A DNA stretch of 56,431 nt from positions 1 through 56,431 of the IMG/VR virus record IMGVR_UViG_3300045988_170861; one strand, written 5' to 3'. Position numbers and translations under genes: made by a program. Below are positions 16,840-44,787 of the stretch, piece by piece. This DNA is from a virus. Under the pieces are notes generated by a model. That model saw only the letters and a program-made list of their open reading frames with translations, had not been told where the DNA came from and searched no databases. Position 1 is the stretch's first letter; the number at the start of each line of letters is the position of its first letter.

Positions 16840-19800
16840 TTACCAACTTAGAGCTTCTGCTCCTTGATAGTATTCTGGAGTATCTTTTTCTTTTAATCGT
16901 TCTCTTCTATCTTTTTTACGGTCTTTTCTAGCTTTTACTACTGTACTTCTTTTCACTCCTAACTCTTTTAATTTTTTTGCATATGGTGCAAGGTTTTCTT
17001 TTCGCTCTTCTGCATCAAGGTAATCATCAATAGCATTTTGTTTTTCTTTTGATGTCTTATTCATATTGTAATATTTAAGCGATCCTAATTCGGTATCTAT
17101 AGCTTCATTTGTAGATTTAAAGCCCATACCACGAATAATTCTACTCATAGCATCATCATATTTTGTTGTAATTCGTCCTCTTCCGTCCTTGCTTTCACCA
17201 ATAGCAGCGGTATATATATTATACATACCTGGTGATATAGAACGTAACATTCCTAAATTATCACCTTTTGTAGCATTTAAATAAAATTGAGCAATAGTAC
17301 CGCCAGTAGCACCTCCGAATTTTTCCATAGCTTTAATTACAGGGTTTGCATCTTTGTTATAATCTTCTCCTAATCCTGGTATTATATCATTCATACCAAC
17401 ACGAGAACTAATATCTATACCAACGTTACTCAAACCACCATACAATAATGTTCTTATAGCTACTCTTTCTGGCAAACTTGCGTCTTTACTAGCTTCTAAT
17501 AAAAATTGTCTTACTGCTTGTTTTGGACTTACTCCAAATACAGGTTCAGAAATCAAGCCAACAAGAGCCCATAATAAATCTTCTGCTGGTAAACCAAATG
17601 CACCCGCAAAGAAAATCCAACCACCCCAGAATGTAGCCTTTTGTTGCCATGTTGCGTCTTTTTTACCATTAAACGGAATAAAATCACGCATTAATTCAAA
17701 TTGTTTTATAGGATATTTCATAAACTGAAATAACACCTGGCTTATAATGCTTCCACGTCTGAATACGTTTGGAGCATCATTTACGCCATAATCAAAGTTA
17801 GCCTTACGGTTTATATCACGAGCATATTTAACAGCATCATCATGATTTTTATTTAATACATTTCTTGCTTTTCTATATGCTGCAAGAATAGTTGCACAAC
17901 GTGCTAATCTTTCTGAAGCTTTAAATAAAATCATTGAGCGGTCGCCCCATTTACCAAAGCTTGTTTTACTATAACCAGCACCACTATCAAGCCCTAATTC
18001 ATGAAGTACGCCCGTATCTTCCATGGCTTTTCTTTCATCAGGTTTTAATTTTGCTATTCTCTTTTCTGTTTGACTTTCTTTCAAAGCAGCGATATCTTTT
18101 GCAGCCTTCATTACTTCACTAGCAGCTTTTATAGGATTTTTATCTGTTAGTAATGCTGTCGTATTTAAAAGTTGTGTTAAATTAAGCATAGCCGATGACA
18201 CATTCCATACACCGAGTTTTAAAATAGATATTTTATTTGTTATATTACCAGCAACAGATAATGCAGCTCTTTCACCATAACGCGATGTAAATAAATATCT
18301 CCACAGTCTGCGATTATTGAGCCATGTACTTATAGAATTTTCTAATGCTGATGGATTACCGTTTACATCATTGATATAGTCTTTGATATATCTAGCTGTA
18401 CCATTAAGATATTTATTATCCGTACCAATTCTTCCATATATACGTTCAAAATAAGAAATGGCCTTAGGTTTAAATTCTGTTTCTAATGCTTCATATCTAC
18501 AAGCACTATTGAAGTAATGTCTTAACACCCAATTTAAATCTTTATCTTCATATCCTTTAGCACCTGTTCTATGCTGGATATTTCCAAAGAAACGATGTTT
18601 ACTAGAGCGTCTTACCTTGTTTTTATTATCACCTTTTTTATTCAAAAGTTGTTCGACATCATCAATACTCATATCAAATTCATTTGCAATACGTTCATTT
18701 ATTTTTTTATAAGCACCATCGCCAACCATTTCAGCATAATATTCTTCATCAATTCCGACCTCATTAAAATCAAATCGTTTAGGGTGAATTATTAACTTAG
18801 CATTTTCATTGTCTTTTAAATACTGTTCTGCTTTTTTATAGGCTTCTTTTACATTTCTTCCACTATCCACAGTTGTAGTAGTTCCATCATCATTTTGAAC
18901 TACTACATAGAAATCATGGAAAAAGTGTGGTACATATCCTTCTAATTTATTTACTTTTGGAATAGCTTCACGATATTTAACAGTGTATAGCTTGTTATTA
19001 TCAAGGTTTATTTTTTCGCCTTTTGGTGTACTGTAATCATCGCCGTAAATATGAGTGCTTCCATCTTTTTCCGTTACTCCTTCTTTTTCTTCTAAAATCT
19101 GGATAGCCTCATCTTTTCTAAGTGCTTCTAATTGGGCTTTGTTACAAACATCTTGTCTTATATGACTAGGGCGAATTTCATACGTTACCAAAACATCGTC
19201 CTTATCTTTTTCATTTTGAACCTCATCTAAGATATTGACGAATTTATTTTGTTTTAATCCTTCAAGTTTACTTTTAGAAATAATTTCTGATTTTGTTTGT
19301 ATTTGCGTTCTAGCTCTATTTATTAACTCATAGCACTCATTTAAAAGACCTCTAATAGCAATATATGCTTTAGCTGTACCTTTTTTTACTCCTGTTTCTT
19401 CTACGATTTTATCTGCACGTTTTTCAAAATCAGTTATGCCTTTTCCATACTCTTCGCTTAATGCATCACCTTTAAACATCAAATCATTTAATTCCTCTAT
19501 ATCCTTATCTTTGTTTTCAAGATAATCAAACGCTTCATTTAACTTTTTATTATAATAATGACGATTTTTAAGTTGTTTACGCATAGCATTATCAGCATAA
19601 TTAAATACGGGTTTAAATGCTACATACTTTTCGGCTAATCTTTCTGGTGATGATAATATAGATTCAAAACCACCAATATTACCAAGCTCATCAACTTTTT
19701 TATCATGTGCACTTTTACTGTATATCTTTATACGCTCATCTTTTTTATTTTTAGTAAATCTATTTTTAATATTTTTAAAAGCACCTTTAAAAATACCTGT

Positions 19801-22800
19801 AGCACTATCAACACTTTTATCATTGTCAGCAGAAAATTGAGAGTTATATTCGTCATCGTCAAATAAAACGCTCATATAATCCTCACCATATTGACGAATT
19901 AAAGACTCCTCTTCTTCTTTACCTATAGAATAAAAATCTCTATTATCATTAATTTTTATCTCGCCATTTTTTCCACGTTCAAATAGTTTATTTCCCTGAT
20001 TATCAACGATAGATGAAGATAGTTTCATAAAATTTTTAAACATAGATTTCTTCTGTGTATTAGTCAATCCAGCTTTAGGATTGTTTAAGAAATCAGTAAA
20101 TCTATTCATTAAATCACGAATAAATGAAATTAATCTTTTGGCCAAAGATTTATTTTCTTTGCCTAAATTTCTTAAATATTTAACACGTTTAACTACATCA
20201 TAAAAACCATCAGCCATCATTTCTTCAATAATTTTATCTTCAGATAATTTATCACCACGCCAAACAGTTTTACGATAATCCTCAATCTGTTTTGGTGTAA
20301 CTCTTTTCTTCATATCATTTAACATATCATTAAACAAACTAGGATTATTTCTGGCTATCCAATGGAATGTTTCATGCCAAAATACTTTAGGGTGGGACCA
20401 GTTACCATTTACATTAAGATATGTTGTACCGTGAGAGTGCCAACCTCTAAATCCTTTTGGACCTGTAAACCAATATATTGGAGTTCCCATTCTATCGCCG
20501 ATTGCAGATATTTCTTTTTCATAATCGCCAATTTTAACATTATCGAAATCAGCTTTTTCTCTAATATCTACATACTCATCTAATTTTTTATACATATCTT
20601 CAGCAAAAGAATAATTACTAGATTGTTCTTTATCTGTTATTCCTCTAACCGCATTAACAAATTTCTGTCTATCTTCTGATGACGAAAATAAAAAACCTTT
20701 AGCAAATCTACTATATCCACCGCCAGATTGTTTTGCTAATGATTTCAACTGCTGAAAATTCATTTGCTCTTTTACTTTTACACGATATTTTAATTCGCCA
20801 TTTCTAGTATCAGTATGAGTATCTAAAGTAAATTTGTCATCATCAACATTCTCAATACTACCAGAGCTACTATCAGATGAATTTCCTTTTTTTGCTTCTA
20901 TTTCTTTTTTCTTTTCTATCATAGATGTGATTATATCCGCAAATTCGTCAATAGTTTTGTCAGGATTAATTTCATAAGGTGATGTATTTTTTTTAGCAGC
21001 TAATTTATCATTTTTAAAAATATTTATGAAGCCATTGTATTTACCTTTATTATCGACATCATCTTTAGCTAGTGATTTTATTATTGGTTCAATATATTTT
21101 TTTACATTTTGTTTTAAATTTTGAGCACTACTATTTGATACTTCAGGTATCATTAAAAGCCTATTGCGCATTCTTAAAACAATTTTTCTCATATTACCAG
21201 TTGTAGTTTGTAGGTTTGAATCATACCCAAAATAATAATTGTAGATATCTTTTATATTATCTATTTTTTCTTTAGTATCTTTGTTAATGTGTATAGTATC
21301 TACATATTTAACTGGTTTTTCATTAGAGAAATCAAAGTCATCAACATTTATTGATTGTTCAGGCGATGATTTTTCTTTAGTGCTTTTTGTAGTTTTTATA
21401 CCTTCTTTTGTAAGGCTACCAACTATAATATGTTCATTCAAGAAATCAGCGTCATCTTTTTTAGGTGCATTTTCTTCTTTAACTACGTTATCGTCTTCGC
21501 TTTCAACTACGTTATCTGTCATATCCTCATCATAATTGTTATCAACATTATTATCTACACCTATATTTAATTTGCTGTTGATATCAGCTTGTTTAGCTAA
21601 TAATTCATTTAGTTTATCCTCATCAGCAAATTTCTTATTCATTTCTTTTGTTAGTTCTTTTTGTCTTTCGACAGATTGTTTTATTATATCGTTATTAGTT
21701 TCAACTATTTTTTGTGGCATATTATTTACTGTAGCTTCAATACTTCTAATAGAATTTTTAGCTTCATATGACCAATTATTTACCAATGTTAAAATTACTT
21801 CTCCACTCGTTTTTGTAGTATGTCCATAAAGAGTTGTAGAAGTAGGAACAAATCTAGCTTTTAAATCAAATCCAGCTATTTCACCTATTTTTGTATTATT
21901 TTTATTTTGTTCTTTCAATATTGGTTCTGTAATTTTATCTAATGCCAATTGTGCTTTTTTACGGTCAGTAAACAGCCTATTACCAATTTTAATTGAAAAG
22001 TTTTTACCGCTTATATCTTTATGTTGTTTAACATCAAGAGTAGCTTTTTCACTTGCTTTTGTAGCATTTTCAATTTTTCCTGGAAGCTTTTCTAATTCTC
22101 TTTTTATTCTTGATTGCTTCTTATCAAAAGAATTTTTTAAGCTAGTATATTTTCCAACCTCAGCATCAATAAGAACTTTTTCTGCCATTAATGGATTACC
22201 AGAAGCTAACGATTCAGCTTCGGCAAAACTCATTGCTAATACGTCGTTATCCTCAATAATACGTTGTGTAATATCAGCACTCAACGCTTCTGATATGAAA
22301 TGCTGCTTATTCTTTATTTTTTCCCACATATTAGCATCAAAGCTATCTTTTGTTACATACGTATATATCCCGACTTCTTTATTTTCATTTCCTTGTCGTA
22401 AAATACGTCCTTCTCGTTGCTCTATATCACGAGGTCGCCATGGGCAATCTAAATGATGTAATGCAACAAGTTTTTTTTGACAGTTAGTTCCTGCCCCCAT
22501 TTTTTCTGTTGAACCAATCAGCACACGCACTTTACCATTATTTACATTATCAAATAACTCTTGTTTTTTAGCCCTTGTTTTTGCGTCATGAATAAAAGCT
22601 ATTTCATTTTCTTTTATTCCTTTTTCTATTAGTTGTCGTTTTATTTCATGATATACATTAAATTTGCCATTAGATATATCGTTTTCATTATCTGTATCTA
22701 CATCAACATTATCATTATTTTTATCGCTAACTCCTGCTGGTGTAGATAAATCGCAAAATATAAGTTGTGCTCCTTTTGTACTATTACTATCTTTGTATTC

Positions 22801-25800
22801 TTTATAAACATTATCTACAAGTGAAGATATTTTTGTACCTGCTTGTGAAACTGGTACTTCTGGGTTTATTAATCTTACATCAAGACTAGCTTTTCGCAAT
22901 TCTCCTGTAAGTTTTAACATATTATCTTCTGTTGGGTCTACTTTTCTTTGGCGTATCATTTCTGCTCTATTTTTTACATCGTTAGTAATAAAATCTTTTA
23001 ATGCAGATGAAGCTTCTACCGAAACTACAATTCTTTTTCCAGTTTTCATTTTTGGTACTTTTAAATGTAAATCTTCTGGGCGTTTTACATCAGCAAATTT
23101 CCTAAACATTTTAACCATTTCTGGCTTATTAACAAATGCTGAAGCTTTATTTACAGCTCTATAACCATTTCCATCTGGATTTCTTTCTACAGTTTGAGTA
23201 ATATCTACAAATTGATTAGCCCAATTATCAAAATACAATAAATTATTTTTACGTAAATTATCCTCATCAAGATAACGCATCATTGTATACATTTCAGCAA
23301 GTGTATTTGATATCGGTGTACCAGTTGCAAAAACAACACCACGTCCGCCATTAGTTTTAGTTATATATTTTGTTTTTAAATACATATCCATAGAACGTTG
23401 ACTTCCTGTATTTGATAAACCTGCTACACGTTGCATTTTTGTTGTAAAAGATAAATTTTTAAATAAATCTGCTTCATCAACAAATATCTGGTCTATGCCT
23501 AATTCTTCAAAAGGTATAACCATGTCTTTTTTTTCTTCAGCAATATCTCGTTTTAATTTTGTTTTAAGATTAATTATTGATTTTTCAAGGTTACGAGTTA
23601 CCATGCTATCTAACAAACTTTTATCGCCTTGAGAATTTATTTCTCTTATAGCTTGCTCTAGTGAATTTTCTTGTTCTCTATAGAATTCATTATATGCTTC
23701 TGGCGACATTGGAATTCGCTTAAACATATCATGCGAAATAATTATTCCGTCCCAATCTTCTGTAGCTATTTGTGTTAAAATTCTTTGGCGTTGTGCAATT
23801 TTTTCTGATTTTCTTGAACTGTCCTTATCTTTTTTTGTTACTTCTGGTAAGTTTTCAGATGATACTATTAACAATTGAACATTAGGATAAATTTGTCTAA
23901 ATTCATTTGCGAACTGTTGTATCATATGTCCAGGAATAACAAATAATGGTTTTTTACAAATTCCTAAACGACGCATTTCCATTGCTGCTGTTTGCATAGT
24001 CCATGTTTTACCAGCACCAACACTATGAGCAAGTAAAGTATTTGAATTTTGCATTATACGCCATACAGCATCTTTTTGATGTTTTCTTAACGGTGGTGCT
24101 ATTAATGAATATCCTGGTAATATTAAATGTGAACCATCATATTCACGCAACTTCCAATTATTAAAGTTTGTATTGTAATAATCAAGTAATCTTTTTGTTC
24201 GCTTTTCGTCTGACCATATCCAATCATTAAATGCCTTTTTAATATTATCAATCATATTATTTGCAGCTGTTGTAGCATCATCATCAACGACTGATTTATT
24301 CTCACTAATAGTCTTTTTTATGACTGGTCGCTTTTGATTTAATGCTGCTTCTAGCAATTTATCAAAAGACCAACGGTTACTAATACCCCATGTTTCAGTA
24401 AACGAAACATTATTTTTAACCCAAGTATCAGCTTTAACTGCCCACTCACCATTAGCTGGCAAATAAATTACATCAATATAATCACTATTTACACCAACAG
24501 TTTCTGCTGCAAATTGTTTTATATCACTTGCTGGTATCCATGAAGCACCAAGATTAACTGTTATTTCTTCTGGAACAAGGTCAACTGGTTGAACTTTTTT
24601 GAGTGCCTCAATATTTTCTTTATAGCTACTATCTGTTTTCGCTACTTCTTCAGCTTGAGCTAATTTTTCACGTACATTGCCAGACAAATATTCATCTTGT
24701 GTTTCATATAATCCTGTCATCGGATTTTTATAAATAACGCCTTTGAGATTTTCAACTATTTCTTTTGGCTCTTTTCCAACTAAATTAGCCATATAATCAA
24801 TATCTACTTTTCCTTGTTCGCGTAAACTTATAGCTAGTGCGTCAGATGGGCTGTCAGCTTTTGTTGGTTTTTTTACTAATCCAACTGTTCGCATATTAAA
24901 AATATCTGATTTTCCAACAGTAACTTTTTTAGTCTTTTTATCTTCTGAATATCGTTCTATTGCCGATACCATTCCGTATTCTGGGTCAGTTGCAAGATAA
25001 CGAGAATTGTTTTTATTATTCAAATATCCGTTGTTTTCAACAAATGTATCATACAAAGTATTAAGTTCTGTTCTTATCTTTGAAATAGCTGTATCACTTA
25101 TTTTGTTATCAACTTGAGCTGACAATAATTGTTTTAATTTGTTTTTAACATTAACAAAATCTTTAACAAGTTTTTGCTTTGCTTTTGGAACTTCTTCTAA
25201 TTTACCATTTATATTTTGATATACTTTACCACTTTTACCAATAGTATAAGAATTATCTCTAAGCTTATTCGGTGCAAGATATTCCATTGTAGCCTGTTTA
25301 CTATCTTTTACAGGATTTAACAATGGCTCGTAAACATCTTCAGCTATTTTTTTTGTTATTTTTGATAACTTTTTAGGTAAATCAATATCCTTACCACTTA
25401 CATTTAAAGCATCGTTTCCATAACGACCAGAAATTGATGTAATTTTTCCAGCTACCATTTCAGGATTTTTTATATAATATTGGTTCATTTGAAACATACG
25501 TTCATCAACATCAATAAGGTCTGTTTCAATCCAATCTTTAGCATTAATATCTGCTTTTAATGGGTCAATGCGTTTCTTTAATATTATTATGTCAGAAATA
25601 ACATTTGTACCTGTATTATTTTTAAATGCTGTATCAGGTAACCTAATAGCACCTATTAAATCAGCTTTATCTTTTAAATATATACGTAAACGCTTTGAAT
25701 CATGACTATTATCCATAGTTCCTTTAGTAGTTATAAAAACAATCAATCCACCTGGTCTAACTTTATCCAAAGCTTTAGCAAAAAAGTAATTATGAATATC

Positions 25801-28800
25801 AAATTTATATTTATTGAATTTAGCATCGTGTACTCTAAATTGACCAAATGGAACATTACCAATAGCTAAATCAAAGAAGTTATCAGGAGAACTAAGTTTT
25901 TCAAATCCAGTGATATTAATATTAGCTTTTTGATAAAGTTGTGTAGCAATCTGACCACTTATTTTATCCAATTCTACGCCTGTTAAATATGAATTTCCCA
26001 TTATTTTTTCAGGCATAAGACCAAAGAAATTACCTACTCCCATTGATGGTTCAAGTATTTTACCGCCTTTAAATCCTAATCTATCAACAATTTTCCAAAT
26101 AGATTTTACTACATTAGGTGCTGTGTAATATGCAGAAAGCATAGACTCTTTAGCTGCTCTATATTCATCATCGGTTAATAATTCTTTTAATTCATTATTT
26201 GTTTTTTCATCAGAAAATACCGATGTCATTCCGCCCCAGCCACTATATTTTGCTAATGTTTTTTGTTCTGCAGACGTTGCTTTTCTACTTTCTATTTCTA
26301 ATTGTTTTAAAAGTTTTATTGCTTTTATATTATTTTTATATCGTTTTTCTTTACCACCTTCACCGACATTATCTTTATCTGACATTCTATAGTTAATAAG
26401 TGCAGGCTCATTACTTATTTCTTTTACCGTTTCTGTTGTTAAAGGTTCTATCTTTCGTTCATCATTTCCCAAGCCAGCATTTCCGCTTCCATTCTGCGTC
26501 TGGTCAACTCCAGATAATCGTCCGTTGGTGTCTGGTCGTTCATCAACATTTGTGTCAAGTCCTCGTGTTGATTGTCCCTCTCCTCGATTATTTTCTGTAC
26601 TTGTTGACGAAGATTTCCTTTCTTCTTCATTGCTTCCAGTTCCTTCGGATTGTTTACTTCCATTTGTAATATTTCCTCGTCTATTCTGTTCTTCATCGAG
26701 AACGCCATTATCTTTCACCTCATCAGTTTTATTTATTAAATTATTGTCTTTAGCATAATTATATATATTATCTATAACACGAACAATTGAATCAATAGTT
26801 CTACTTTCAACTGCTGAATATCTACCAACGCGAGGATTATTTTCCCATATATCACGGCGATTATCTTGTTCTTCTTTTGTTGTAGCTTTATTTATCCACT
26901 GTTCAACAGCTTCTGCTTCTTTTTCTTTTGCTATTTTATTTAAAGCTGAATACTTGTTACCAGCATATTTTAATGAGTTATCTATTTCATCTAATGTTAC
27001 ATCAAATTTTCTGTTAGAACCAAATAACAGTCTTTGACTTAATTCAGGAGAATCTACACTATCAAAATCTTTTTCTGTATAATTACTTTTTTTAGCATCT
27101 TTTGAAGTTAATGTTATTACATTTCCTCTTAAAAAACCATTATACATACCGATTTTATCATTAAATTTATAGATAATAGGATTTTTTTTGTTGCTTTTTT
27201 GTTCTTTAGTTTTTTCTTCTTTTTCTACATTTTCTTCTTGCGGTTTATTTTCTTCTTTAGTTTTTTCTTCTGTTACGTTAGTTTCCTTTACATCAACCTC
27301 TTTTTCTTTTGTAACTTTATCATTGCTTTGTTTTTCTTTATCTTTTGCTACTGCTTCTTCAATTGCTTGTTTTCTTGCTATTGCTGATTCAGCTAATATG
27401 TCATCAATTCCTAATCCTTTACCTTCTGGAGTAAATACTTTTTCCATCAAGTCTTTATATTTTTTTCTTATCTTAATTAACTTATTTTTAAGTTCTTCTT
27501 TTATATCATGGTCGTTTATAGCTTCTAAATCTTTAAATAATTGTTTTGTATATTCATCACCTTTTTTTACTTCTTCCACTGTAGGGTCTTTGAAGTTTTC
27601 TGGTATTTTTTCTATCTGTTCAGTAGAAGCTTCTTTTTCGCTTGATTTTTTTTGCTCTTTAACTTCTTCTTTATTATTTTTATTTAGTTTGTCTTTTAAG
27701 AAGTTGAAATAATCATGTTCTCCTTTAGTTATTTTTTCTTTTTTATCATCTTTAACTAAATAATAATTACTTCCATCTTTTTGAACATTATAACTGTCAT
27801 CGCTTATAGATTTTTCTATTCTTTCTTGACGAGAAATTTCACTATTAGGAAGTATTTTCTTTAATGTATTTGTAGCTTGTGATTTTTTTAATGATGTATC
27901 TAATGTATTGATATATTGATTAAAATATGGCTCTAAATCAATATTTTGATTTTGTTCAACGTTATTAGAAGGTTCTTCATTTACTATTTGTTCTCGTTGT
28001 TTTGGTGTCTTATATGAACCATAAACTTGCGGTGGTAATGTGAAATTTTTTGCAAACTCAACACCGCTTTTAATTAATTTATTTCTTCTAGCTTCTATTC
28101 TTGTTTGATTAGCGAGCTGAATTGGATTAAGAATTTTATTTTGTAGAATGTTGTTAGCTGTTGATGTTGATTCAACTTTTTGTACATTGTCATTAACAAC
28201 ATTATTTTGCTGTTGTTGTACTTGTTGATTATTAGCTATTTCATTAGCATAATTTTTCATCAAATATTGTTTTGCTTTTTGCTCATCTAAGAATTGATTA
28301 TCTTCATTATTATTTTTAAATAATGATTGTAATTTAGCTATTTCTTCTGGATTTCTACTTGTTTTAACTCGTTGTCTTGCAAACTCACGTAACCTATCAA
28401 GGTTAGGAGTTTCCATTTGAATTTTATTATTATTTGTAGATTTATTTTCGTTTGATGATGGTTTAACTGTATTAGTTGTTTTAATTGATTTAGTTAATGG
28501 TTCATTATTTTGTTTTTGTCTACTATTAACATAATCATAAATATTATCTTCTATACCTGGATAACGTTGTATTAATGCTCTTAAATTATCATCAGTAGCT
28601 TTAAATAGTTTATTTCCTCTTCCATCTATTATTGTTTTATCCTTAAAAAATTCTGTCGTTTCACCATCAGCATTATTAAGCATATCATTAGCAAAATCTA
28701 AAATAGAATTATCAAATTGTACGCTTGCTTCTGCTATATTTGTTTTACCTTTTGTTCCTAATCCACCTTTATATCCTTCTAAATGTAAATGATATCCACT

Positions 28801-30723
28801 GCCTACGTCATGAAATAATACATCTTCGAAAGCTCCTGTGTCCTCAAAACGTTTCCTTACAGCTTGTGCTTGTTCGTCTGTAATTCCGTTTGGTAAAACA
28901 ATATCTACTGCATCACCTTTTGTATGATATGAACCTTCAACGCCTCCAACTTCTCTATTATGTTCAGGTGTTCTATATGCTGATGAAATTGCTGAACCTT
29001 CTGCCATACCCATATCATCAAGAATACCACCAATATATGGTAATGCACTTTTAAATGCAGGAGTAAGTCCTTCTATTTGATTTTCTATTCCTGGTTGAAC
29101 AGATAAATTATACGTATGCATATTATATCTTGATAGTCCATCATCTTGTATTTCACCAGCAATACTTTCAATATTCGCTCCATACTCATTCGGGTCAGAA
29201 GAAAAATATCCATTATCATATAATACACGTGCAAAATCTTGTCCATTTTTTACATTGGATAAATCATAATGGCTTAATGTTTGTTTTGCATACTCATGAG
29301 CAAAATCTTCTATTGAATCAAAACTTTGTAACTCATTTGCTGTAGTATCCGTTCTTTTTAAGCCAGCAAAATTATTAGTTCTGTTAGCATTTCCAGCAGT
29401 AAATCTTCCACTTTCTAATGCCCATTGTGAATAAATATATTTTGTTAAATCTGGTCGTCCTATATCATCAGCAGCGATTTTTGCAGCTTCCCATGCTTTT
29501 TCATTTTCTACGCCTTTTGGTACACCTTGGTCTGTTACATATCTTGTATAAGAAGCAGCTCCGCTCATTGGTGCTCCTGTAAGTGCTCCTATAAGTAGAG
29601 AGTCAAGCTGGTCTTGACTAGCGTTCCAAGGCAACAATCCCCAATCTTTATCTGTTTGTGCATTTGAAATACCTTGCTGTACATACTCTTCTAAACCTTG
29701 TTGAGCCGATGTAGCTAATGTAGAAGGAACAGAACGATATGTCCCTTTAATTAATCTTTTAGGAATGCTTTCTCCTTCTACCGCAAGAGGCTTAAATATC
29801 TTTCCGCCAAGTAATCCATATTCAAGACCATTCGATATTGCCAATGATGGCAAATTCAATCCAGCAGTTTTCCAACCGCGTAAAAACGGATTGTCTAATC
29901 CTTCTTCTTTTGCTTGTCTTACTACATTACCACCTTCAGATAAACTTTCAGGTACAGATGTTATAGAACCTCTTATCATTGTTTCTAAAGCATCGTCGCT
30001 TAATCCACGTAAAAAAGGTAATTTTTTTAATGTCTGTGCTGCTGATGTTACTTTTGTAGCTGGTGCTAAGAATGAAGATGGATATAATGCAGCCATTGAG
30101 CCGACCATATTACCAACATCATAAGTCAAGCCAGATGGATTAGTTAAGTAATCTAGCGATAAAATATTATCTGCTCCACTATACTCTCTATCTCTTTTAT
30201 TTAATTTAGAAATAGCATTTAATTCATTTCCTGTTTTTTCTGCTCCGAATATATCAGCAATCCCACCAGCTACAGAACTTGCTCCACTAACAGCACCTTT
30301 ACCAAAATTATAATTATATTCAGCAGCAGTTGGTGCATATGTTTGTTGCATTGCGTGTTCAACTTCATTTGCACCAGCCAATCCACTAAATAATAAACTG
30401 ATAGGCGACTGATTAATTCCTAAATGTTTCAATTCTCCAAACGGCATTGCTCGTTCTAAACCTGCTACAGTATCTTTAAGTTTTTGTGGAATATATTCAT
30501 TATAAGTATCAGATATATTGTTTGCTACCCAATCATAATTATTAGAAATTCCATTTGCTACATATTCAGCATTATTAGAAATACCGCTGGCTATATCACC
30601 AGCGGTATCAAATATTTTATCTAATGTAGACTCATTTTCTTCTTGTCGTCTTTTTTCTTCTTCTGCGTTATATGTTCCAACAGGGCCTGTTGCTTTTATA
30701 AAGTTCTGTAAAAATTTAGACAT
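16840..30723 (-). CDS. giant polyvalent virion/ejection protein (4627 aa): glucosaminidase + M15 peptidase + N6A-MTase + SNF2 helicase + HExxH zincin + hydrophobic C-terminus
   Basis: Motifs YSQWALESGRF...NNFAGLK; SAYRTPEHNRE...H.H; ILEPSMGVGNFFG and NVPFG; AHSVGAGKT, FVDEAD, TGTPISN, QREGRILRQG; FWHETFHW. Confidence 0.85.
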   Translation of the reverse strand: MSKFLQNFIKATGPVGTYNAEEEKRRQEENESTLDKIFDTAGDIASGISNNAEYVANGISNNYDWVANNISDTYNEYIPQKLKDTVAGLERAMPFGELKHLGINQSPISLLFSGLAGANEVEHAMQQTYAPTAAEYNYNFGKGAVSGASSVAGGIADIFGAEKTGNELNAISKLNKRDREYSGADNILSLDYLTNPSGLTYDVGNMVGSMAALYPSSFLAPATKVTSAAQTLKKLPFLRGLSDDALETMIRGSITSVPESLSEGGNVVRQAKEEGLDNPFLRGWKTAGLNLPSLAISNGLEYGLLGGKIFKPLAVEGESIPKRLIKGTYRSVPSTLATSAQQGLEEYVQQGISNAQTDKDWGLLPWNASQDQLDSLLIGALTGAPMSGAASYTRYVTDQGVPKGVENEKAWEAAKIAADDIGRPDLTKYIYSQWALESGRFTAGNANRTNNFAGLKRTDTTANELQSFDSIEDFAHEYAKQTLSHYDLSNVKNGQDFARVLYDNGYFSSDPNEYGANIESIAGEIQDDGLSRYNMHTYNLSVQPGIENQIEGLTPAFKSALPYIGGILDDMGMAEGSAISSAYRTPEHNREVGGVEGSYHTKGDAVDIVLPNGITDEQAQAVRKRFEDTGAFEDVLFHDVGSGYHLHLEGYKGGLGTKGKTNIAEASVQFDNSILDFANDMLNNADGETTEFFKDKTIIDGRGNKLFKATDDNLRALIQRYPGIEDNIYDYVNSRQKQNNEPLTKSIKTTNTVKPSSNENKSTNNNKIQMETPNLDRLREFARQRVKTSRNPEEIAKLQSLFKNNNEDNQFLDEQKAKQYLMKNYANEIANNQQVQQQQNNVVNDNVQKVESTSTANNILQNKILNPIQLANQTRIEARRNKLIKSGVEFAKNFTLPPQVYGSYKTPKQREQIVNEEPSNNVEQNQNIDLEPYFNQYINTLDTSLKKSQATNTLKKILPNSEISRQERIEKSISDDSYNVQKDGSNYYLVKDDKKEKITKGEHDYFNFLKDKLNKNNKEEVKEQKKSSEKEASTEQIEKIPENFKDPTVEEVKKGDEYTKQLFKDLEAINDHDIKEELKNKLIKIRKKYKDLMEKVFTPEGKGLGIDDILAESAIARKQAIEEAVAKDKEKQSNDKVTKEKEVDVKETNVTEEKTKEENKPQEENVEKEEKTKEQKSNKKNPIIYKFNDKIGMYNGFLRGNVITLTSKDAKKSNYTEKDFDSVDSPELSQRLLFGSNRKFDVTLDEIDNSLKYAGNKYSALNKIAKEKEAEAVEQWINKATTKEEQDNRRDIWENNPRVGRYSAVESRTIDSIVRVIDNIYNYAKDNNLINKTDEVKDNGVLDEEQNRRGNITNGSKQSEGTGSNEEERKSSSTSTENNRGEGQSTRGLDTNVDERPDTNGRLSGVDQTQNGSGNAGLGNDERKIEPLTTETVKEISNEPALINYRMSDKDNVGEGGKEKRYKNNIKAIKLLKQLEIESRKATSAEQKTLAKYSGWGGMTSVFSDEKTNNELKELLTDDEYRAAKESMLSAYYTAPNVVKSIWKIVDRLGFKGGKILEPSMGVGNFFGLMPEKIMGNSYLTGVELDKISGQIATQLYQKANINITGFEKLSSPDNFFDLAIGNVPFGQFRVHDAKFNKYKFDIHNYFFAKALDKVRPGGLIVFITTKGTMDNSHDSKRLRIYLKDKADLIGAIRLPDTAFKNNTGTNVISDIIILKKRIDPLKADINAKDWIETDLIDVDERMFQMNQYYIKNPEMVAGKITSISGRYGNDALNVSGKDIDLPKKLSKITKKIAEDVYEPLLNPVKDSKQATMEYLAPNKLRDNSYTIGKSGKVYQNINGKLEEVPKAKQKLVKDFVNVKNKLKQLLSAQVDNKISDTAISKIRTELNTLYDTFVENNGYLNNKNNSRYLATDPEYGMVSAIERYSEDKKTKKVTVGKSDIFNMRTVGLVKKPTKADSPSDALAISLREQGKVDIDYMANLVGKEPKEIVENLKGVIYKNPMTGLYETQDEYLSGNVREKLAQAEEVAKTDSSYKENIEALKKVQPVDLVPEEITVNLGASWIPASDIKQFAAETVGVNSDYIDVIYLPANGEWAVKADTWVKNNVSFTETWGISNRWSFDKLLEAALNQKRPVIKKTISENKSVVDDDATTAANNMIDNIKKAFNDWIWSDEKRTKRLLDYYNTNFNNWKLREYDGSHLILPGYSLIAPPLRKHQKDAVWRIMQNSNTLLAHSVGAGKTWTMQTAAMEMRRLGICKKPLFVIPGHMIQQFANEFRQIYPNVQLLIVSSENLPEVTKKDKDSSRKSEKIAQRQRILTQIATEDWDGIIISHDMFKRIPMSPEAYNEFYREQENSLEQAIREINSQGDKSLLDSMVTRNLEKSIINLKTKLKRDIAEEKKDMVIPFEELGIDQIFVDEADLFKNLSFTTKMQRVAGLSNTGSQRSMDMYLKTKYITKTNGGRGVVFATGTPISNTLAEMYTMMRYLDEDNLRKNNLLYFDNWANQFVDITQTVERNPDGNGYRAVNKASAFVNKPEMVKMFRKFADVKRPEDLHLKVPKMKTGKRIVVSVEASSALKDFITNDVKNRAEMIRQRKVDPTEDNMLKLTGELRKASLDVRLINPEVPVSQAGTKISSLVDNVYKEYKDSNSTKGAQLIFCDLSTPAGVSDKNNDNVDVDTDNENDISNGKFNVYHEIKRQLIEKGIKENEIAFIHDAKTRAKKQELFDNVNNGKVRVLIGSTEKMGAGTNCQKKLVALHHLDCPWRPRDIEQREGRILRQGNENKEVGIYTYVTKDSFDANMWEKIKNKQHFISEALSADITQRIIEDNDVLAMSFAEAESLASGNPLMAEKVLIDAEVGKYTSLKNSFDKKQSRIKRELEKLPGKIENATKASEKATLDVKQHKDISGKNFSIKIGNRLFTDRKKAQLALDKITEPILKEQNKNNTKIGEIAGFDLKARFVPTSTTLYGHTTKTSGEVILTLVNNWSYEAKNSIRSIEATVNNMPQKIVETNNDIIKQSVERQKELTKEMNKKFADEDKLNELLAKQADINSKLNIGVDNNVDNNYDEDMTDNVVESEDDNVVKEENAPKKDDADFLNEHIIVGSLTKEGIKTTKSTKEKSSPEQSINVDDFDFSNEKPVKYVDTIHINKDTKEKIDNIKDIYNYYFGYDSNLQTTTGNMRKIVLRMRNRLLMIPEVSNSSAQNLKQNVKKYIEPIIKSLAKDDVDNKGKYNGFINIFKNDKLAAKKNTSPYEINPDKTIDEFADIITSMIEKKKEIEAKKGNSSDSSSGSIENVDDDKFTLDTHTDTRNGELKYRVKVKEQMNFQQLKSLAKQSGGGYSRFAKGFLFSSSEDRQKFVNAVRGITDKEQSSNYSFAEDMYKKLDEYVDIREKADFDNVKIGDYEKEISAIGDRMGTPIYWFTGPKGFRGWHSHGTTYLNVNGNWSHPKVFWHETFHWIARNNPSLFNDMLNDMKKRVTPKQIEDYRKTVWRGDKLSEDKIIEEMMADGFYDVVKRVKYLRNLGKENKSLAKRLISFIRDLMNRFTDFLNNPKAGLTNTQKKSMFKNFMKLSSSIVDNQGNKLFERGKNGEIKINDNRDFYSIGKEEEESLIRQYGEDYMSVLFDDDEYNSQFSADNDKSVDSATGIFKGAFKNIKNRFTKNKKDERIKIYSKSAHDKKVDELGNIGGFESILSSPERLAEKYVAFKPVFNYADNAMRKQLKNRHYYNKKLNEAFDYLENKDKDIEELNDLMFKGDALSEEYGKGITDFEKRADKIVEETGVKKGTAKAYIAIRGLLNECYELINRARTQIQTKSEIISKSKLEGLKQNKFVNILDEVQNEKDKDDVLVTYEIRPSHIRQDVCNKAQLEALRKDEAIQILEEKEGVTEKDGSTHIYGDDYSTPKGEKINLDNNKLYTVKYREAIPKVNKLEGYVPHFFHDFYVVVQNDDGTTTTVDSGRNVKEAYKKAEQYLKDNENAKLIIHPKRFDFNEVGIDEEYYAEMVGDGAYKKINERIANEFDMSIDDVEQLLNKKGDNKNKVRRSSKHRFFGNIQHRTGAKGYEDKDLNWVLRHYFNSACRYEALETEFKPKAISYFERIYGRIGTDNKYLNGTARYIKDYINDVNGNPSALENSISTWLNNRRLWRYLFTSRYGERAALSVAGNITNKISILKLGVWNVSSAMLNLTQLLNTTALLTDKNPIKAASEVMKAAKDIAALKESQTEKRIAKLKPDERKAMEDTGVLHELGLDSGAGYSKTSFGKWGDRSMILFKASERLARCATILAAYRKARNVLNKNHDDAVKYARDINRKANFDYGVNDAPNVFRRGSIISQVLFQFMKYPIKQFELMRDFIPFNGKKDATWQQKATFWGGWIFFAGAFGLPAEDLLWALVGLISEPVFGVSPKQAVRQFLLEASKDASLPERVAIRTLLYGGLSNVGIDISSRVGMNDIIPGLGEDYNKDANPVIKAMEKFGGATGGTIAQFYLNATKGDNLGMLRSISPGMYNIYTAAIGESKDGRGRITTKYDDAMSRIIRGMGFKSTNEAIDTELGSLKYYNMNKTSKEKQNAIDDYLDAEERKENLAPYAKKLKELGVKRSTVVKARKDRKKDRRERLKEKDTPEYYQGAEALSW

Positions 30724-30741: not shown

Positions 30742-32775
30742 TTAATATCCAGGAATTAATTCTTTTTTATATTTATCTGGTATTCCACTGAAATATTTTT
30801 CAGCCATATCGGTATATCCAGCTTCAAGTTCTCTCCGTCCTTCAAGTGCTAATATCATTGAATTGGCATACGTGCTATCTTCTTCGTCCATTTCTGGTAA
30901 GTATTTTGCTACCTCATTTTTAAAGTTATCAATGTCTTCAGCATCTAATGATTGTTTAGCTTTCGCATATCCTTCTGCTAACGGTCTTGACCAATCTGGT
31001 ACTTTATCAGATGACGAGTTATTATCACTATTAGGCATTTTACCAGTTAAAACATAAAGTAAGCCCTGTCCTTGGTCCCATACCCCAGCACTTACTAATT
31101 GTTGAGCAGCATCTTGACGGGCATTAGCTTTATTTTGTTCACTTTGATTTCTTATACTCATTTCCAATCTTGTTACATAATCTTTTACTTTAAGTTGTAA
31201 TCCCGTATTAAAAGCATTTACATCTTTTTGAGCTGCTGTTTCTCTAGCAAGCATATCAACAGATTGTTTATATTTTCTATCTATATTCGCTTGTGTAAAT
31301 TGTTGTGCTAAATTTGCCTTATCTATATCGCGTGCAAATCCCCATTGTTCTTTTGGTGAAGCAAATTGACTAGCATATAATTGAGCCATTTCAGGATTGT
31401 TTGCTAATGTTGCTTGTGATAATAAAGCAATACCCATACTATTTAAAGAACCATCTGGATTAACTCCTGTTGTATTCATGACATTTTGAAGATTATTCAT
31501 ATATTTTGCTTCATACTGCATAGCCATATCAGAAGCAAATTGACGTGCATAATCTTCTGGTATTCTTTTCTTTATAGCTTCTTGATATGCTCGTTGATAA
31601 AAATTATTAGGATTTACAGTAATATCAGGCTGTTTTAATAGTTCTTGTGGCGTTAAATTATTTATTTGTTCAGTTTCTTCCTGTTGTTTTTTAGCATTTT
31701 GTTGAGCTTGTTCACCTTGTATCATTCGTGCTAAATTTTCTAAGCTTACATCAGAGCCTGCTTCTGGAATTGATATTCCATTTTCGGCTGCTAATTGTCT
31801 AATAGCTTCTGCTCTCATATTCGCATTTTGCATATCTTGCGTATTATTATTTTGTTGAGCATTTGCATAGTCTTGTTTAGATTGTAAAACACCATTTAAT
31901 AATTGCATTTTTATATCATCATAAGTAGGATTATCAAAGTTTTTAACTTTATTTAAGCGGTTTTGTACTTCTTCAACTGTATTTTCTCCCCCTGCTACAT
32001 CTAATTTTATGCCGTATAAATAAGCAAGTTGTCTTGCTCCATTTGCCTGTTGTTGTGCTTGTTGCATTCCTTGGGTATCTCCATTTTGTTGTGCACTAGC
32101 ATATTTATTTTTAGCGTCAATTATTTGTTGATATAGCATTTGTTCAATAGATTGTCCATTATAAGAATTAGCCTCACCACCAGTTTTTAGTGATGAGGCC
32201 TGATAAAAAGAAGGTATACCAAATACATTTGAAATTGCATTGTTAACTACATTTTGACCTAAGTCAGACATTATATTATTACCACTTAACGAGCCATTAT
32301 CTTTTTGTGCTTCTTGCATTACCGCTTGATTGGTTAAGTTATTATTATTTTCATTTATTTGAGCTTGTGTTTGTGGCTGTTCTTGTTGTTGCCCTAATCT
32401 GCTTAAATCCATATTTTGATTGTTTGCTTGTGCAGCACTGTATATATCATATCCACTAATTGGAGTATTCAATAATTCTTCTTTTGTTTGTGGTACAAAT
32501 AATTCACCATTGGGCGAATATGCCTTAATTGCTGTATCAGTTAAACTATTACCTGTTGTATTTAAATTATCTGTAGCTAATGATTGATTATTATTTCCAG
32601 TTCCTGACATTTTATCTTGTAAATAATTTTGTATTTGTGGTTTTAAAAAATACTTTGAAATTAATGAGCCTGCTAAATATGCTGGATCTGCATTTTGCAT
32701 ACTCATCATCGATGCTATTTGATTTAATCTTTGTTGATACCAGTCTTGACCAGTTGAATTGTAATTTCCAGCCAT
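30742..32775 (-). CDS. Q/N-rich protein with internal tandem repeat, putative internal virion/ejection protein
   Basis: 677 aa, repeats KYASAQQNGDTQGMQQA... / QDYANAQQNNNTQDMQNA... Confidence 0.5.
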   Translation of the reverse strand: MAGNYNSTGQDWYQQRLNQIASMMSMQNADPAYLAGSLISKYFLKPQIQNYLQDKMSGTGNNNQSLATDNLNTTGNSLTDTAIKAYSPNGELFVPQTKEELLNTPISGYDIYSAAQANNQNMDLSRLGQQQEQPQTQAQINENNNNLTNQAVMQEAQKDNGSLSGNNIMSDLGQNVVNNAISNVFGIPSFYQASSLKTGGEANSYNGQSIEQMLYQQIIDAKNKYASAQQNGDTQGMQQAQQQANGARQLAYLYGIKLDVAGGENTVEEVQNRLNKVKNFDNPTYDDIKMQLLNGVLQSKQDYANAQQNNNTQDMQNANMRAEAIRQLAAENGISIPEAGSDVSLENLARMIQGEQAQQNAKKQQEETEQINNLTPQELLKQPDITVNPNNFYQRAYQEAIKKRIPEDYARQFASDMAMQYEAKYMNNLQNVMNTTGVNPDGSLNSMGIALLSQATLANNPEMAQLYASQFASPKEQWGFARDIDKANLAQQFTQANIDRKYKQSVDMLARETAAQKDVNAFNTGLQLKVKDYVTRLEMSIRNQSEQNKANARQDAAQQLVSAGVWDQGQGLLYVLTGKMPNSDNNSSSDKVPDWSRPLAEGYAKAKQSLDAEDIDNFKNEVAKYLPEMDEEDSTYANSMILALEGRRELEAGYTDMAEKYFSGIPDKYKKELIPGY

Positions 32776-32792
32776 TATTAAAAACTCCCTTC

Positions 32793-33512
32793 TTAAAATA
32801 ATCCGCCAAACAATCCACCAAGTAATCCGCCACCGCTAGTGGTTTGAGTAGTTGTAGTCGTTCCTTTACCTGCTAATGCATTAAGCGTTGAATTGCCTGA
32901 ACTTGCAAGCCCTGTTGAAGCATTCCACAAATTAAGTGCTGGCTGTTGAGCCGCTTCTTGTGCTCCTGCTGCTGTTGTTATTCCTGCCGATGCATTATTG
33001 ATATTTCCATTATTTATTCCATTTAATAAGTTCATGTAACTTTGTTGTTGTTGTGAAATAGTATTATTCACACTATCAGATAAATCTTTCATTCCTGTAG
33101 TTGTTACAGAACTATTCAATACACCATTATTAGCAAGTCCATTTAATAAATTACCCATACTATTTTGCGCTATGGTTGATACATTATTAGTTATATTGTC
33201 TAGTGCTGCTTGCGGTAATTGTCCATTAGCCAAAGCTTGATTATTTTGGTTTGCTTGATTTATTTGACTTTGTGCTTGATTATTAGCTGTGTTAAAATCA
33301 TATCGAACAGCACCTATTGAATTTTGCAGAATATTTTTAGCAGTATCATTGAGCCAAACTGCATTAGGTGCATATTGATTAGCTAAGTCAGCTTGAACTT
33401 TTTGCAGCTGTAGCTCATATTCTGTTGGTTGATACGATTGGTTGTTTACCGTTGTATTTCCTTTGAATAACTGCAAATCTATATAATAAATTTTAGGTTT
33501 GTATGCATGCAT
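32793..33512 (-). CDS. Q/N-rich protein with Gly-zipper C-terminus GGGLLGGLFGGLF; N-terminal Prp-type motif YIDLQLFKG; putative ejection protein
   Basis: Composition and motifs read from translation. Confidence 0.5.
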   Translation of the reverse strand: MHAYKPKIYYIDLQLFKGNTTVNNQSYQPTEYELQLQKVQADLANQYAPNAVWLNDTAKNILQNSIGAVRYDFNTANNQAQSQINQANQNNQALANGQLPQAALDNITNNVSTIAQNSMGNLLNGLANNGVLNSSVTTTGMKDLSDSVNNTISQQQQSYMNLLNGINNGNINNASAGITTAAGAQEAAQQPALNLWNASTGLASSGNSTLNALAGKGTTTTTQTTSGGGLLGGLFGGLF

Positions 33513-33533: not shown

Positions 33534-34013
33534 CTAAATATCCCATGTTACATAATAAGAAATCCTTGTTATATCATCATGCATATGTACAGGTGATACA
33601 CGAGCCTTCTTACCTTCTTTGTTTTCTGCATAATAGATAAAAGAGCCGTCATTGAGCGGCTCTTTTTTAGTTATCTTATATCCCCAAAAACGAATATAAG
33701 CTTTTATATTTTCTCGTATGCATATTGTACCTAGTTTTTTTATCCCTAGCATTTGAGCAAATACTGTGGCAAAATCTCGCCAAAATTTGCCATCACCAGC
33801 CATTTGATAAATCATTAGCATACTATTATCTTGAGTAGTGCTAAATTCACAAAAGCCACGAGAAGGCAAATAAAAAAGCTTAAACCCTTCTTTTGGTTTA
33901 AACTTATCTTTTGTTTTTTGCTCATATTTTTTTATATATTCATCTAATATATTCATAAAATTCTCCATTAAATATAAAAGACAAGCAAATTGCTTGTCCT
34001 TTATATTATACAC
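33534..34013 (-). CDS. hypothetical protein
   Basis: ORF. Confidence 0.45.
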   Translation of the reverse strand: MYNIKDKQFACLLYLMENFMNILDEYIKKYEQKTKDKFKPKEGFKLFYLPSRGFCEFSTTQDNSMLMIYQMAGDGKFWRDFATVFAQMLGIKKLGTICIRENIKAYIRFWGYKITKKEPLNDGSFIYYAENKEGKKARVSPVHMHDDITRISYYVTWDI

Positions 34014-34392: not shown

Positions 34393-34425
34393 AAAAACAG
34401 CCTCCCTTTATTATAAAATGAGGAC

Positions 34426-34599: not shown

Positions 34600-34649
34600 T
34601 AGCTTCCTCCTTAAAAATATTATACGCCCAAATGCGTATAATATCAAGA

Positions 34650-43707: not shown

Positions 43708-44787
43708 TTATGCAGCAGCATTATCATCAGCAGAAGATGTAAGAATGTTGATAGTAGCAAAATCAGTTTCTCCAACAGTAGGTAATGTGTATTTACATCT
43801 AGCAACACCAAGAATTTGAGAAAGTGCAACACCCCATTTATTATTGTAGTCGAAAGTATCTTCGTCCCAATGAGGTTTCGCAGCACGAGCGATAACACCT
43901 GCTTGTGGTCCTAACAATAAAGCGTGTCCTACCATAGCACTTCCTTCGCCTGTTTTTGTACGAGGACAAGTTTCTGATTCATGAACAACCACTTTATCCC
44001 AAATACCTAATGCACCACTGAAAATAGGATTTTTAAGTCCACGAATATTAGCATCTTTTTGTGCATTAAACCATTTTTCATCTTTTTTGAGGTCGCGTGC
44101 CTGGTATGGGTCAATTACCATTACATAATAATTTCCACCTTCGACATTTACAGTACGAATGATTGGATCTGCCATTTGTGCCATGCGTTTTGCCATACCA
44201 ATAACATCTGTATTAAATACATCAGTTGTCGTAATTGCACTTTCAGATGTTTTTTGGCCAGCATAAATAACACGGTTAGCTGTTGGACTATCAGTTAATA
44301 CTTTGAATATTTCTTTATCTAACCATTCAGCAACCTGTGTTTCGAGGGCAGCTTTAGCATCTTCACGCATTTTTAATGTGCTTTTTTGTTCTTCCATTCT
44401 ACCAGAAGATTTTACAGCCCAACGTTTTTGGTCAATTGTAACTCCAAATGCTTTATAGGTTAAATCTTGTTCGTGTCCTTCTAATTCATTATCGCCTGTG
44501 ATTGGATCGCCATTAAGTTTTAAAAGCAAATTAAACCATGCTTTATCACCTTTGGTTTTTGCAAGATTATCATCAATTTGAATAATAGAATTAGCATCAG
44601 TACCAGTGAATTTACCAAAGAAAATATTCTTCATAGCAGCTTTAATTGTTTTTTCTGCCCAATACTGTTTTACCAATTCACTTGGTACAGTAATTCCGAA
44701 TAGCTGAATATTTACTTTGATACAATGCGGTTTTTTCTTAGTATGAGCTACTACCGCCAAAAGCTGTTTTGTGTTTGTTGTTTCCAT
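43708..44787 (-). CDS. major capsid protein (start METTNTK with RBS AAAGGTG; ORF track extends to 44880)
   Basis: Position after scaffold; size 359 aa; N-terminal Prp-type motif KVNIQLFG. Confidence 0.65.
   Translation of the reverse strand: METTNTKQLLAVVAHTKKKPHCIKVNIQLFGITVPSELVKQYWAEKTIKAAMKNIFFGKFTGTDANSIIQIDDNLAKTKGDKAWFNLLLKLNGDPITGDNELEGHEQDLTYKAFGVTIDQKRWAVKSSGRMEEQKSTLKMREDAKAALETQVAEWLDKEIFKVLTDSPTANRVIYAGQKTSESAITTTDVFNTDVIGMAKRMAQMADPIIRTVNVEGGNYYVMVIDPYQARDLKKDEKWFNAQKDANIRGLKNPIFSGALGIWDKVVVHESETCPRTKTGEGSAMVGHALLLGPQAGVIARAAKPHWDEDTFDYNNKWGVALSQILGVARCKYTLPTVGETDFATINILTSSADDNAAA

Follow-up and report, generated by a model that had tools for sequence, protein, structure and literature searches.

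In the viral genome IMGVR_UViG_3300045988_170861 (positions 1 to 56,431, analyzed in full and hereafter called the window), two adjacent Gln/Asn-rich genes, designated here A (239 amino acids, aa) and B (677 aa), prove to be genuine and conserved, and belong to a podovirus prophage of gut Megamonas. Judging by sequence features and by analogy with characterized phages, their products are probably internal head or ejection (pilot) proteins of a temperate podovirus infecting Megamonas. This assignment draws on a conserved gene block, on a Prp-type processing motif and a phage-encoded protease, on a match in features between A and P22 gp7, on the homology of the neighboring giant protein to Bcep22 gp75, on the published definition of ejection operons and on the Negativicutes hosts of the family. 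The genomic context is the strongest evidence for it. A and B form part of a four-gene block closing the late operon, listed here in the order of transcription:

33534..34013, minus strand: 159-aa gene, in the position of P22 gp14 and T7 gp13, always paired with A
32793..33512, minus strand: gene A, 239 aa, an open reading frame (ORF) with a Shine-Dalgarno sequence; putative pro-protein and positional and feature analogue of P22 gp7
30742..32775, minus strand: gene B, 677 aa, an ORF with a Shine-Dalgarno sequence; predicted helical, in the position of P22 gp20 and T7 gp15
16840..30723, minus strand: gene for a 4,627-aa DarB-like large polyvalent protein (Pfam), in the position of P22 gp16

The block mirrors P22 14-7-20-16, T7 13-14-15-16 and Bcep22 gp69-70-74-75, of which, by analogy, it would be the counterpart. 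A sequence-only reading of the window had drawn the parallel with the P22 ejection block and had proposed A and B as candidates for an internal or ejection complex. Both proposals are upheld and strengthened here by a gene order and gene sizes that match 14-7-20-16, by the gp7-like termini of A, by the homology of the giant protein to Bcep22 gp75 and by the detection of positional neighbors of that gene in JC1 virions. The two ORFs themselves were recovered where that reading had placed them, on the minus strand and each with its own Shine-Dalgarno sequence.

The arrangement of the block is conserved well beyond the window. All 17 genome or metagenome loci have a homologue of the 159-aa gene immediately upstream of A, and one is present in all of the 80 viral contigs carrying A (97 related loci in all), a tighter link than the one joining A to B. 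Downstream of A, relatives have at most two small genes before a B-like gene, which is followed by a giant gene, wherever the flank reaches. The giant genes of these relatives exceed 2,300 aa, a lower bound because the flank ends inside them; their products start with an SLT or glucosaminidase domain and also contain helicase domains and LPD38. The giant gene of the window starts 18 nucleotides (nt) after B, the spacers between A, B and the neighboring genes measuring 17–21 nt, and its product presents N-terminal peptidoglycan hydrolases (glucosaminidase, aa 428–525; M15 peptidase, aa 578–626) together with a helicase core (Pfam). A scan for promoters and terminators returned nothing decisive within the block. 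Ejection operons have been described as encoding a gp14-like protein of 181–240 aa, a gp15-like protein of 431–982 aa and a larger protein with a cell-wall hydrolase, and homologues of their products are usually recognized by size and synteny, not by sequence (PMC8954989). The block formed by the 159-aa gene, A, B and the giant gene fits this definition, which supports its interpretation as an ejection operon. The named hosts of the A family (Megamonas, Selenomonas, Acidaminococcus, Megasphaera, Anaerovibrio and Phascolarctobacterium) are all Negativicutes, with a few assignments to other taxa that stem from metagenome bins, and the B homologues that carry a name come from Megamonas funiformis. 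The Negativicutes are diderm Firmicutes, endowed with an outer membrane, that also use Prp.

The window itself is a 56.4 kb temperate podovirus-type genome with a G+C content of ~30%, in which the early region lies on the plus strand and the late operon on the minus strand. The late operon comprises an integrase, the small and large terminase subunits, a Prp cysteine protease (PF04327), a P22-type portal and a protein in the scaffold position, followed by the capsid (PF13252), an SU10-type adaptor and tail and fiber proteins, then by a holin, a GH25 endolysin, an Rz-like spanin and a HicA/HicB pair, and finally by the 159-aa gene, A, B and the giant gene. The sequence-only reading had located A and B after the lysis cassette and before the giant gene. 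This is accurate for the window, but only the adjacency to the 159-aa and giant genes is conserved: the lysis cassette falls outside the conserved neighborhood, A is not beside lysis genes in relatives, and even here the HicA/HicB pair and the conserved 159-aa gene separate the spanin from A. The link to lysis bears on the proposal that A is a membrane-active lysis accessory or the precursor of a bacteriocin-like peptide, with a glycine-zipper tail acting late on the host membrane. That A follows the genes for the holin, the endolysin and the spanin, and that a 933W protein with a similar tail is annotated as a "bacteriocin", speak for this proposal, but the persistent association of A with the 159-aa and giant genes away from lysis genes, the detection of the phi24B homologue of that "bacteriocin" in virion preparations, and the fact that A has neither a signal peptide nor a predicted transmembrane helix make it very improbable.

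The A family comprises 557 homologues at the 90% cluster level and, at 50% identity, forms 389 clusters; neither Pfam nor PHROGs nor the records of cultured phages include it. Pfam, PHROGs and NCBIfam, searched with both proteins and with nine relatives resembling A or B, yielded no match, or matches at chance level only; in tblastn neither protein matched any of 50,697 phage records, and the A profile matched no PDB sequence. Half of the members of the family do match, weakly, a "minor capsid protein 2" model, which conveys a generic structural flavor only. The family is conserved over its full length, with 38 invariant columns in an alignment of 50 homologues. Its conserved elements include the leader, a mature N-terminus of the form KGGxTTVxNTSTYTPTEYELQLQ, the motifs GVLNSSVT and AAQEAAQQPALNLWNASLGL, a Thr-rich run and a C-terminal glycine-zipper tail:

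32796..32834, minus strand: C-terminal glycine-zipper tail GGGLLGGLFGGLF of A, identified from its sequence

The tail, which agrees with the earlier description of a glycine-zipper end, follows the GxxxGxxxG pattern, with glycines at i, i+4 and i+8, and this pattern is conserved in the family; similar tails end nearly all of the 120 closest A homologues. Its GGLL/GGLF repeats are coded by a tandem 12-nt unit (x3.1, 32796–32832). The wider family contains a second C-terminal class in place of the zipper tail. About one third of this wider family (P0229, P0245, P0249 and others) carries no glycine-zipper tail, and these members present an extra C-terminal region of ~130 aa ending in YYANGF(V/I)AKGGTxEW. 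The N-terminus varies as well, with some members being leaderless (MGKKGG...) and others carrying a long alternative leader that ends in YFRHCRF immediately before KGG.

The composition of A and B had led the sequence-only reading to label both proteins prion-like. The Gln/Asn richness itself is confirmed, amounting to 26.4% of A and 22.6% of B, about twice the 13.3% of pooled late-region proteins and the 11.8% of the giant protein, and A is very poor in charged residues (DEKR, 7.5%). The internal repeats that had been noted are likewise present, in the form of a 61-aa duplication in B and of the tandem unit in the tail of A. The prion-like mark of Michelitsch and Weissman (2000) is 30 or more Gln/Asn in 80 consecutive residues. 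In their best 80-residue window A and B contain 30 each, compared with 31 for the giant protein, 29 for the scaffold and 28 for the spanin. A and B do not display the low-complexity, poorly conserved and disordered sequence that would accompany the label; they are conserved along their length, with helices predicted. The label was dropped because A and B belong to conserved helical families with many invariant positions, and because the Gln/Asn mark, which both barely reach, is also reached or approached by the giant, scaffold and spanin proteins. That A and B might act through self-templating aggregation, as prion-like or amyloid Gln/Asn-rich proteins, is hence extremely improbable. Their 30 Gln/Asn residues and the nearly uncharged nature of A are all that favors the idea, against which stand the comparable values of other proteins in an AT-rich genome, a position-by-position conservation across hundreds of homologues that include higher-GC relatives, and predicted helices where drifting low complexity would be expected.

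A second line of evidence comes from the N-terminus of A, in which the sequence-only reading had discerned a Prp-type motif. This reads MHAYKPKIYYIDLQLF followed by KGN, and IDLQLF occupies residues 11–16, inside the zone (the first ~20 residues) where Prp substrates carry their motif. On the coding strand the Prp-type pattern has only three matches in the window, each near an N-terminus, and the same Prp-type motif is thus present on the scaffold, the capsid and A. The phage also encodes a Prp of its own, which further backs the earlier assignment of the motif. In the following features, as in the text, an apostrophe marks the predicted cut:

33465..33512, minus strand: leader of A, 16 residues, ending in IDLQLF, with a predicted cut before K17 (IDLQLF'K; motif scan)
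45962..45979, minus strand: VDIKLF'S, at the N-terminus of the scaffold-position protein (44819–46027; Prp-type motif scan)
44698..44715, minus strand: VNIQLF'G, in the leader of the major capsid protein (43708–44880, PF13252; Prp-type motif scan)
48548..48871, minus strand: phage-encoded Prp cysteine protease (PF04327, E 1.3e-16), between the large terminase and the portal

Relatives of the capsid protein begin at its predicted mature N-terminus, and leaders ending in [DN]LQ[LM]F'[KG]GG are kept in many A homologues. The phage Prp retains the catalytic residues, read from its sequence as His21, Asp31 and Cys34, equivalent to H22/D31/C34 in SaPrp (PMC9405229). The recognition motif of Prp, as defined on L27, is (D/N)LQ(F/L)F' (PMC9405229), and both the capsid and scaffold proteins of phage 80alpha are processed by Prp (PMC5744158). 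A resembles these substrates (L27 and the 80alpha capsid and scaffold) in bearing an N-terminal extension of ~9–16 residues that ends in (D/N)LQ(F/L)F, and in a cut after Phe, predicted in the case of A, on a protein that enters a large assembly. It departs from them in the residue after the cut, which is Ala in the known substrates and Lys, Gly or Ser in this phage, and in that the protease gene is here carried by the phage itself. We know of no ejection-type protein that is a Prp substrate, and the presence of the motif on A suggests that Prp has phage substrates beyond capsid and scaffold proteins.

Prp-type leaders are not confined to head proteins, as illustrated by that of a major tail protein in phage phi13 (PMC5744158), which lends some substance to the notion that A, B or both are external parts of the tail (a plug, a needle, a nozzle extension or a fiber-associated component). 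The location of both genes downstream of the tail and fiber genes, and the weak "minor capsid protein 2" matches in half of the A family, would agree with this notion. In this phage, however, the lysis cassette and a toxin-antitoxin pair lie between the tail genes and A/B, which are always linked to a giant internal protein, and the all-helical predictions for A and B, albeit of low confidence, are unlike the beta-rich proteins of tail fibers and needles. On this evidence a place for A and B on the outside of the tail seems distinctly unlikely, and an internal head or ejection role remains the preferred assignment.

Gene B has 104 homologues, in which the N-terminus and a central domain are conserved (alignment). 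The duplication within B consists of two copies:

31732..32151, minus strand: two ~61-aa repeat copies in B, aa ~209–270 and ~287–348 (Smith-Waterman)

The two copies align with a Smith-Waterman score of 113, against 33 +/- 6 for shuffled sequences, and are mirrored at the DNA level by a 58-nt repeat with a spacing of 234 nt; some B homologues possess a single copy. The profile of the central domain matches the ORF directly before the giant gene in 11 other loci (E 6e-23 to 7e-8), and the N-terminal 60 aa of B weakly match a separate ORF of 150–230 aa in relatives. Since its parts match separate genes in relatives, the B of Megamonas phages looks like a fusion, apparently of two genes that remain separate in relatives. 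The AlphaFold2 model of B is helical, with a mean predicted local distance difference test score (pLDDT) of 59.5 and block means mostly of ~70–90 over residues 205–360 and 520–677. Foldseek returned only generic helical repeats from PDB (E >= 0.08) and a single significant match from BFVD, to another uncharacterized gut phage protein, and the B profile reached only E ~1 against PDB sequences.

The 159-aa gene, whose true start is probably Met16 or Met20, giving a product of ~140 aa, has no match in Pfam, and hhalign comparisons of its family with P22 gp14, T7 gp13 and Bcep22 gp69 were not significant. The possibility that it encodes a GNAT acyltransferase like Bcep22 gp69, perhaps modifying the new N-terminus of A, was considered and found to be unsupported by either Pfam or hhalign.

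In the mechanism that we propose, A would be made as a pro-protein with a 16-residue leader ending in a Prp recognition motif. During procapsid assembly, the phage or host Prp would cut A after Phe16 and leave it with a Lys/Gly N-terminus, like mature P22 gp7. Mature A, presumably helical and almost uncharged, would then be packaged in the head along with B and the giant protein. Upon infection, the three proteins would exit via the portal and tail and form a conduit across the outer membrane, the periplasm and the inner membrane. In this conduit A may extend the tail channel at the outer membrane, with its glycine-zipper tail providing for oligomerization, insertion or membrane contact, B may form a periplasmic tube, and the giant protein would cut the cell wall with its glucosaminidase and M15 peptidase domains, its methylase/helicase part then protecting the incoming DNA.

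The main competing explanation holds that A and B are instead head-internal loaders of the giant DarB-like protein, comparable to P1 DarA, Hdf, DdrA and DdrB, so that they would still be virion proteins but would serve packaging or protection rather than a conduit. A and a B-like gene do always accompany a giant polyvalent gene whose product is DarB-like, the incorporation of P1 DarB, as cited in PMC9144972, needs several other head proteins, and no transmembrane helix is predicted in either A or B. Nonetheless, P22 possesses a small-medium-large block in the absence of a DarB-like protein, and its gp7 shares the distinctive termini of A; Bcep22-like phages are devoid of known Dar-accessory homologues (PMC9144972); and a podovirus on a diderm host needs an envelope-spanning device, for which the late operon shows no other candidate genes. 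We hence consider a loading role unlikely, and favor the participation of A and B in an ejection complex.

Several results nevertheless weigh against the ejection assignment. The occurrence of Prp motifs on tail proteins elsewhere indicates that the motif marks an assembly protein, not specifically one internal to the head. In relatives, the leader motif of A is only loosely accompanied by the motif of the head proteins; assessed with a crude regular expression in 80 viral contigs, their covariation was positive, yet weak and lacking independence. No transmembrane helix is predicted in A (maximum 19-residue Kyte-Doolittle mean of 0.57), whereas several are predicted in gp14-type proteins of T7-like systems (PMC8954989). 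Its only hydrophobic stretch, a mild one, spans the last 13–15 residues and is preceded by a polar Thr-rich run, so that the zipper is not inside a membrane-spanning helix of ~20 residues; the 13-residue tail at the extreme C-terminus is too short for a helix across the bilayer. The AlphaFold2 model of A, all-helical but of low confidence (pLDDT 39), is unusable, and the helical and partly confident model of B retrieves no PDB entry, including T7 gp15 and DEV gp72, at E <= 0.001, so that no match to a gp15-like "leg" fold was obtained. Among dedicated families, PF16928 (Inj_translocase) produced no match in the searches with A and B, and PF25688 (P22_gp7), which matched P22 gp7 itself at 9e-129, failed to recover any of 50 A-family members at a cutoff as lax as E <= 10. 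Comparisons by hhalign of the A, B and 159-aa families with gp7, gp20, gp14 and Bcep22 gp70 and gp74 were not significant, the P22 family alignments available for this purpose being too shallow (Neff ~1.2). Against these negative results, a broadened A profile ranked gp7 first of 303 ORFs from P22, 933W, Bcep22 and T7, at 9.7 bits, with a colinear, end-to-end alignment that reaches the common C-terminal LF, and placed the 933W glycine-zipper protein second. The gp7 score exceeds those of all 1,000 plain shuffles and of all but ~1 in 1,000 block-preserving shuffles, and without composition correction at most 4 in 1,000 shuffles surpass it, but unrelated decoy ORFs in related loci equal its 9.7 bits. 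The sequence evidence for homology between A and gp7 is hence suggestive only.

Other features of the window and its relatives lie outside this argument. The HicA toxin and HicB antitoxin pair (34006–34647, minus strand) is an insertion that separates the spanin from the conserved block, and is associated with a strong promoter-like site (11/12 matches, 34647–34619); in a related contig (L002), a YoeB/RelB pair occupies a comparable place upstream of the block. The spanin region (34650–35094, minus strand) consists of two ORFs in different frames that overlap almost fully and start 4 nt apart, a layout that differs from the usual embedded Rz/Rz1. The product of one (146 aa) combines a signal-like, Cys-rich N-terminus with a coiled coil and matches Rz weakly, and that of the other (105 aa) has an N-terminal transmembrane segment. 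Within or next to the lysis genes are also found a crAss001_48-like small protein between the holin and the endolysin (36452–36721, minus strand) and a 204-aa ORF with tail-fiber-like repeats that overlaps the start of the endolysin gene (35316–35930, minus strand). The portal (46373–48544, minus strand) bears a long Gln-rich C-terminal extension (residues ~605–720, QQRQQAQQQAQQAQMQQQLQLVQAQ...) that recalls the P22 portal barrel. In the early region, a gene encoding a TubZ-like tubulin/FtsZ GTPase (5153–6175, plus strand; PF00091 and TubZ_C_3) is found in a phage that also has an integrase, a combination that hints at plasmid-like partition or intracellular positioning; the same region encodes YqaJ/RecT and a Dam methylase. 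Two relatives, L003 (7563–8537 and 5057–7177) and L004, carry by their tail genes a diversity-generating retroelement made up of a reverse transcriptase and an mtd-like receptor-binding protein, an element that the window does not have.

Of all the structural proteins of short-tailed phages, those that are ejected are the least understood, and work on them has been limited almost entirely to phages that infect Proteobacteria and cyanobacteria. The block described here provides a sequence-defined candidate ejectosome for phages of the Negativicutes, which are abundant gut bacteria. It resembles T7 (gp13-gp14-gp15-gp16) and N4 (gp52-gp51-gp50) in its operon layout, where genes for internal proteins (putative ones here) run from small through medium to large and the largest product carries a cell-wall hydrolase, and in its helical, conformationally plastic proteins, which make poor AlphaFold monomers; N4, furthermore, ejects a giant multidomain enzyme. 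Propeptide processing of the kind proposed for A is not a feature of T7.

The closest cultured relatives of the portal are found in Bcep22-like, Ralstonia and Stx (933W-type) podoviruses. In 933W, a similar block precedes a 2,806-aa LPD5 protein and includes a 218-aa protein that starts MGGSKGGG and an 83-aa "bacteriocin" (L101 23468–23719) that ends in AVIGGIAGSLF. In phi24B the giant polyvalent protein is virion-borne, and the "bacteriocin homolog" was detected in a virion preparation and set aside there as a contaminant. Given its zipper tail, its position in the block and the virion proteomics of its phi24B homologue, the 933W "bacteriocin" may be a genuine ejection protein. Tails comparable to that of A recur in 933W p70, Bcep22 gp70 and P22 gp7.

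The relationship with Bcep22 is most evident at the giant protein, which is homologous to the DarB-like gp75 (32% identity over 1,702 aa), and at the portal, which is also related. In Bcep22 the block comprises gp69 (143 aa), gp70 (331 aa), gp74 (532 aa) and gp75, with gp63-gp64-gp68-gp69 as its equivalents in JC1. In these phages, a gene of ~145 aa precedes a protein of ~330 aa with a Gly/Ala-zipper C-terminus (...GLMGGLGTIAGAGIMAF in gp70), and a protein of ~510–530 aa lies directly before the giant gene, as B does here. JC1 gp64, gp67, gp68 and the DarB-like gp69 have been found by mass spectrometry in CsCl-purified virions (PMC9144972). The two systems differ in that A and gp70, and likewise B and gp74, have no detectable similarity, in that gp70 carries a hydrophobic N-terminal segment and no Prp leader, in the insertion of a PAPS reductase gene into the Bcep22 block, and in the annotation of the ~145-aa gene as an acetyltransferase, for which the 159-aa gene offers no such support.

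The most extensive parallel is with P22, where genes 14 (151 aa), 7 (229 aa), 20 (471 aa) and 16 (609 aa) follow the same order as the 159-, 239-, 677- and 4,627-aa genes of the window, the first three being similar in size and both phages having a P22-type portal. In P22, processed gp7 (gp7*), gp20 and gp16 assemble a trans-envelope channel (PMC13622523). Like A, gp7 is a protein of ~230–240 aa rich in Gln, Asn, Ala and Gly and with few charged residues (10.5% in gp7, 7.5% in A). The host protease OpdA removes 20 N-terminal residues from gp7, which then starts Lys-Gly-Gly-Lys-Gly. Both proteins present an N-terminal leader, putative in A, for a host-type protease and a mature N-terminus of KGGKG (gp7) or, as predicted, KG(N/G) (A), to which the A family adds the counterparts LQLF'KGG, GGKGG and the leaderless MGKKGG. 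Both also finish in a glycine-zipper tail ending in LF, which reads GGGIGLLGSLF in gp7 and GGGLLGGLFGGLF in A. The differences reside in the protease, with OpdA acting on gp7 and a Prp-type site on A, in the last gene, a 609-aa gp16 in P22 and a 4,627-aa polyvalent enzyme here, and in the host, enterobacterial in the case of P22 and a diderm Firmicute in the present one.

These comparisons suggest that removal of a propeptide from a gp7-type protein is a conserved requirement entrusted to different proteases in different hosts, and that giant DarB-like polyvalent proteins replace gp16. A stronger proposition, tentative and in our view somewhat more doubtful than plausible, is that the A family consists of true but very distant homologues of gp7, and that leader removal exposing a Lys/Gly N-terminus is a general step for ejection proteins. 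If so, the phages of diderm Firmicutes would have borrowed Prp, of which they carry their own copy, where those of enterobacteria use OpdA; the 159-aa gene would encode a gp14-equivalent assembly factor; ejection proteins would constitute a new class of Prp substrate; and the gp14/7/20/16 ejectosome would reach into the Negativicutes with a polyvalent enzyme of some 4,600 residues as its last member. The leader motif, the KGG mature end and the glycine-zipper tail provide simple markers for the annotation of such genes in metagenomes. These unannotated and widespread families appear to extend the logic of P22 gp14/7/20/16 to phages whose hosts are diderm Firmicutes, the analogue of gp7 bearing a Prp-type propeptide.

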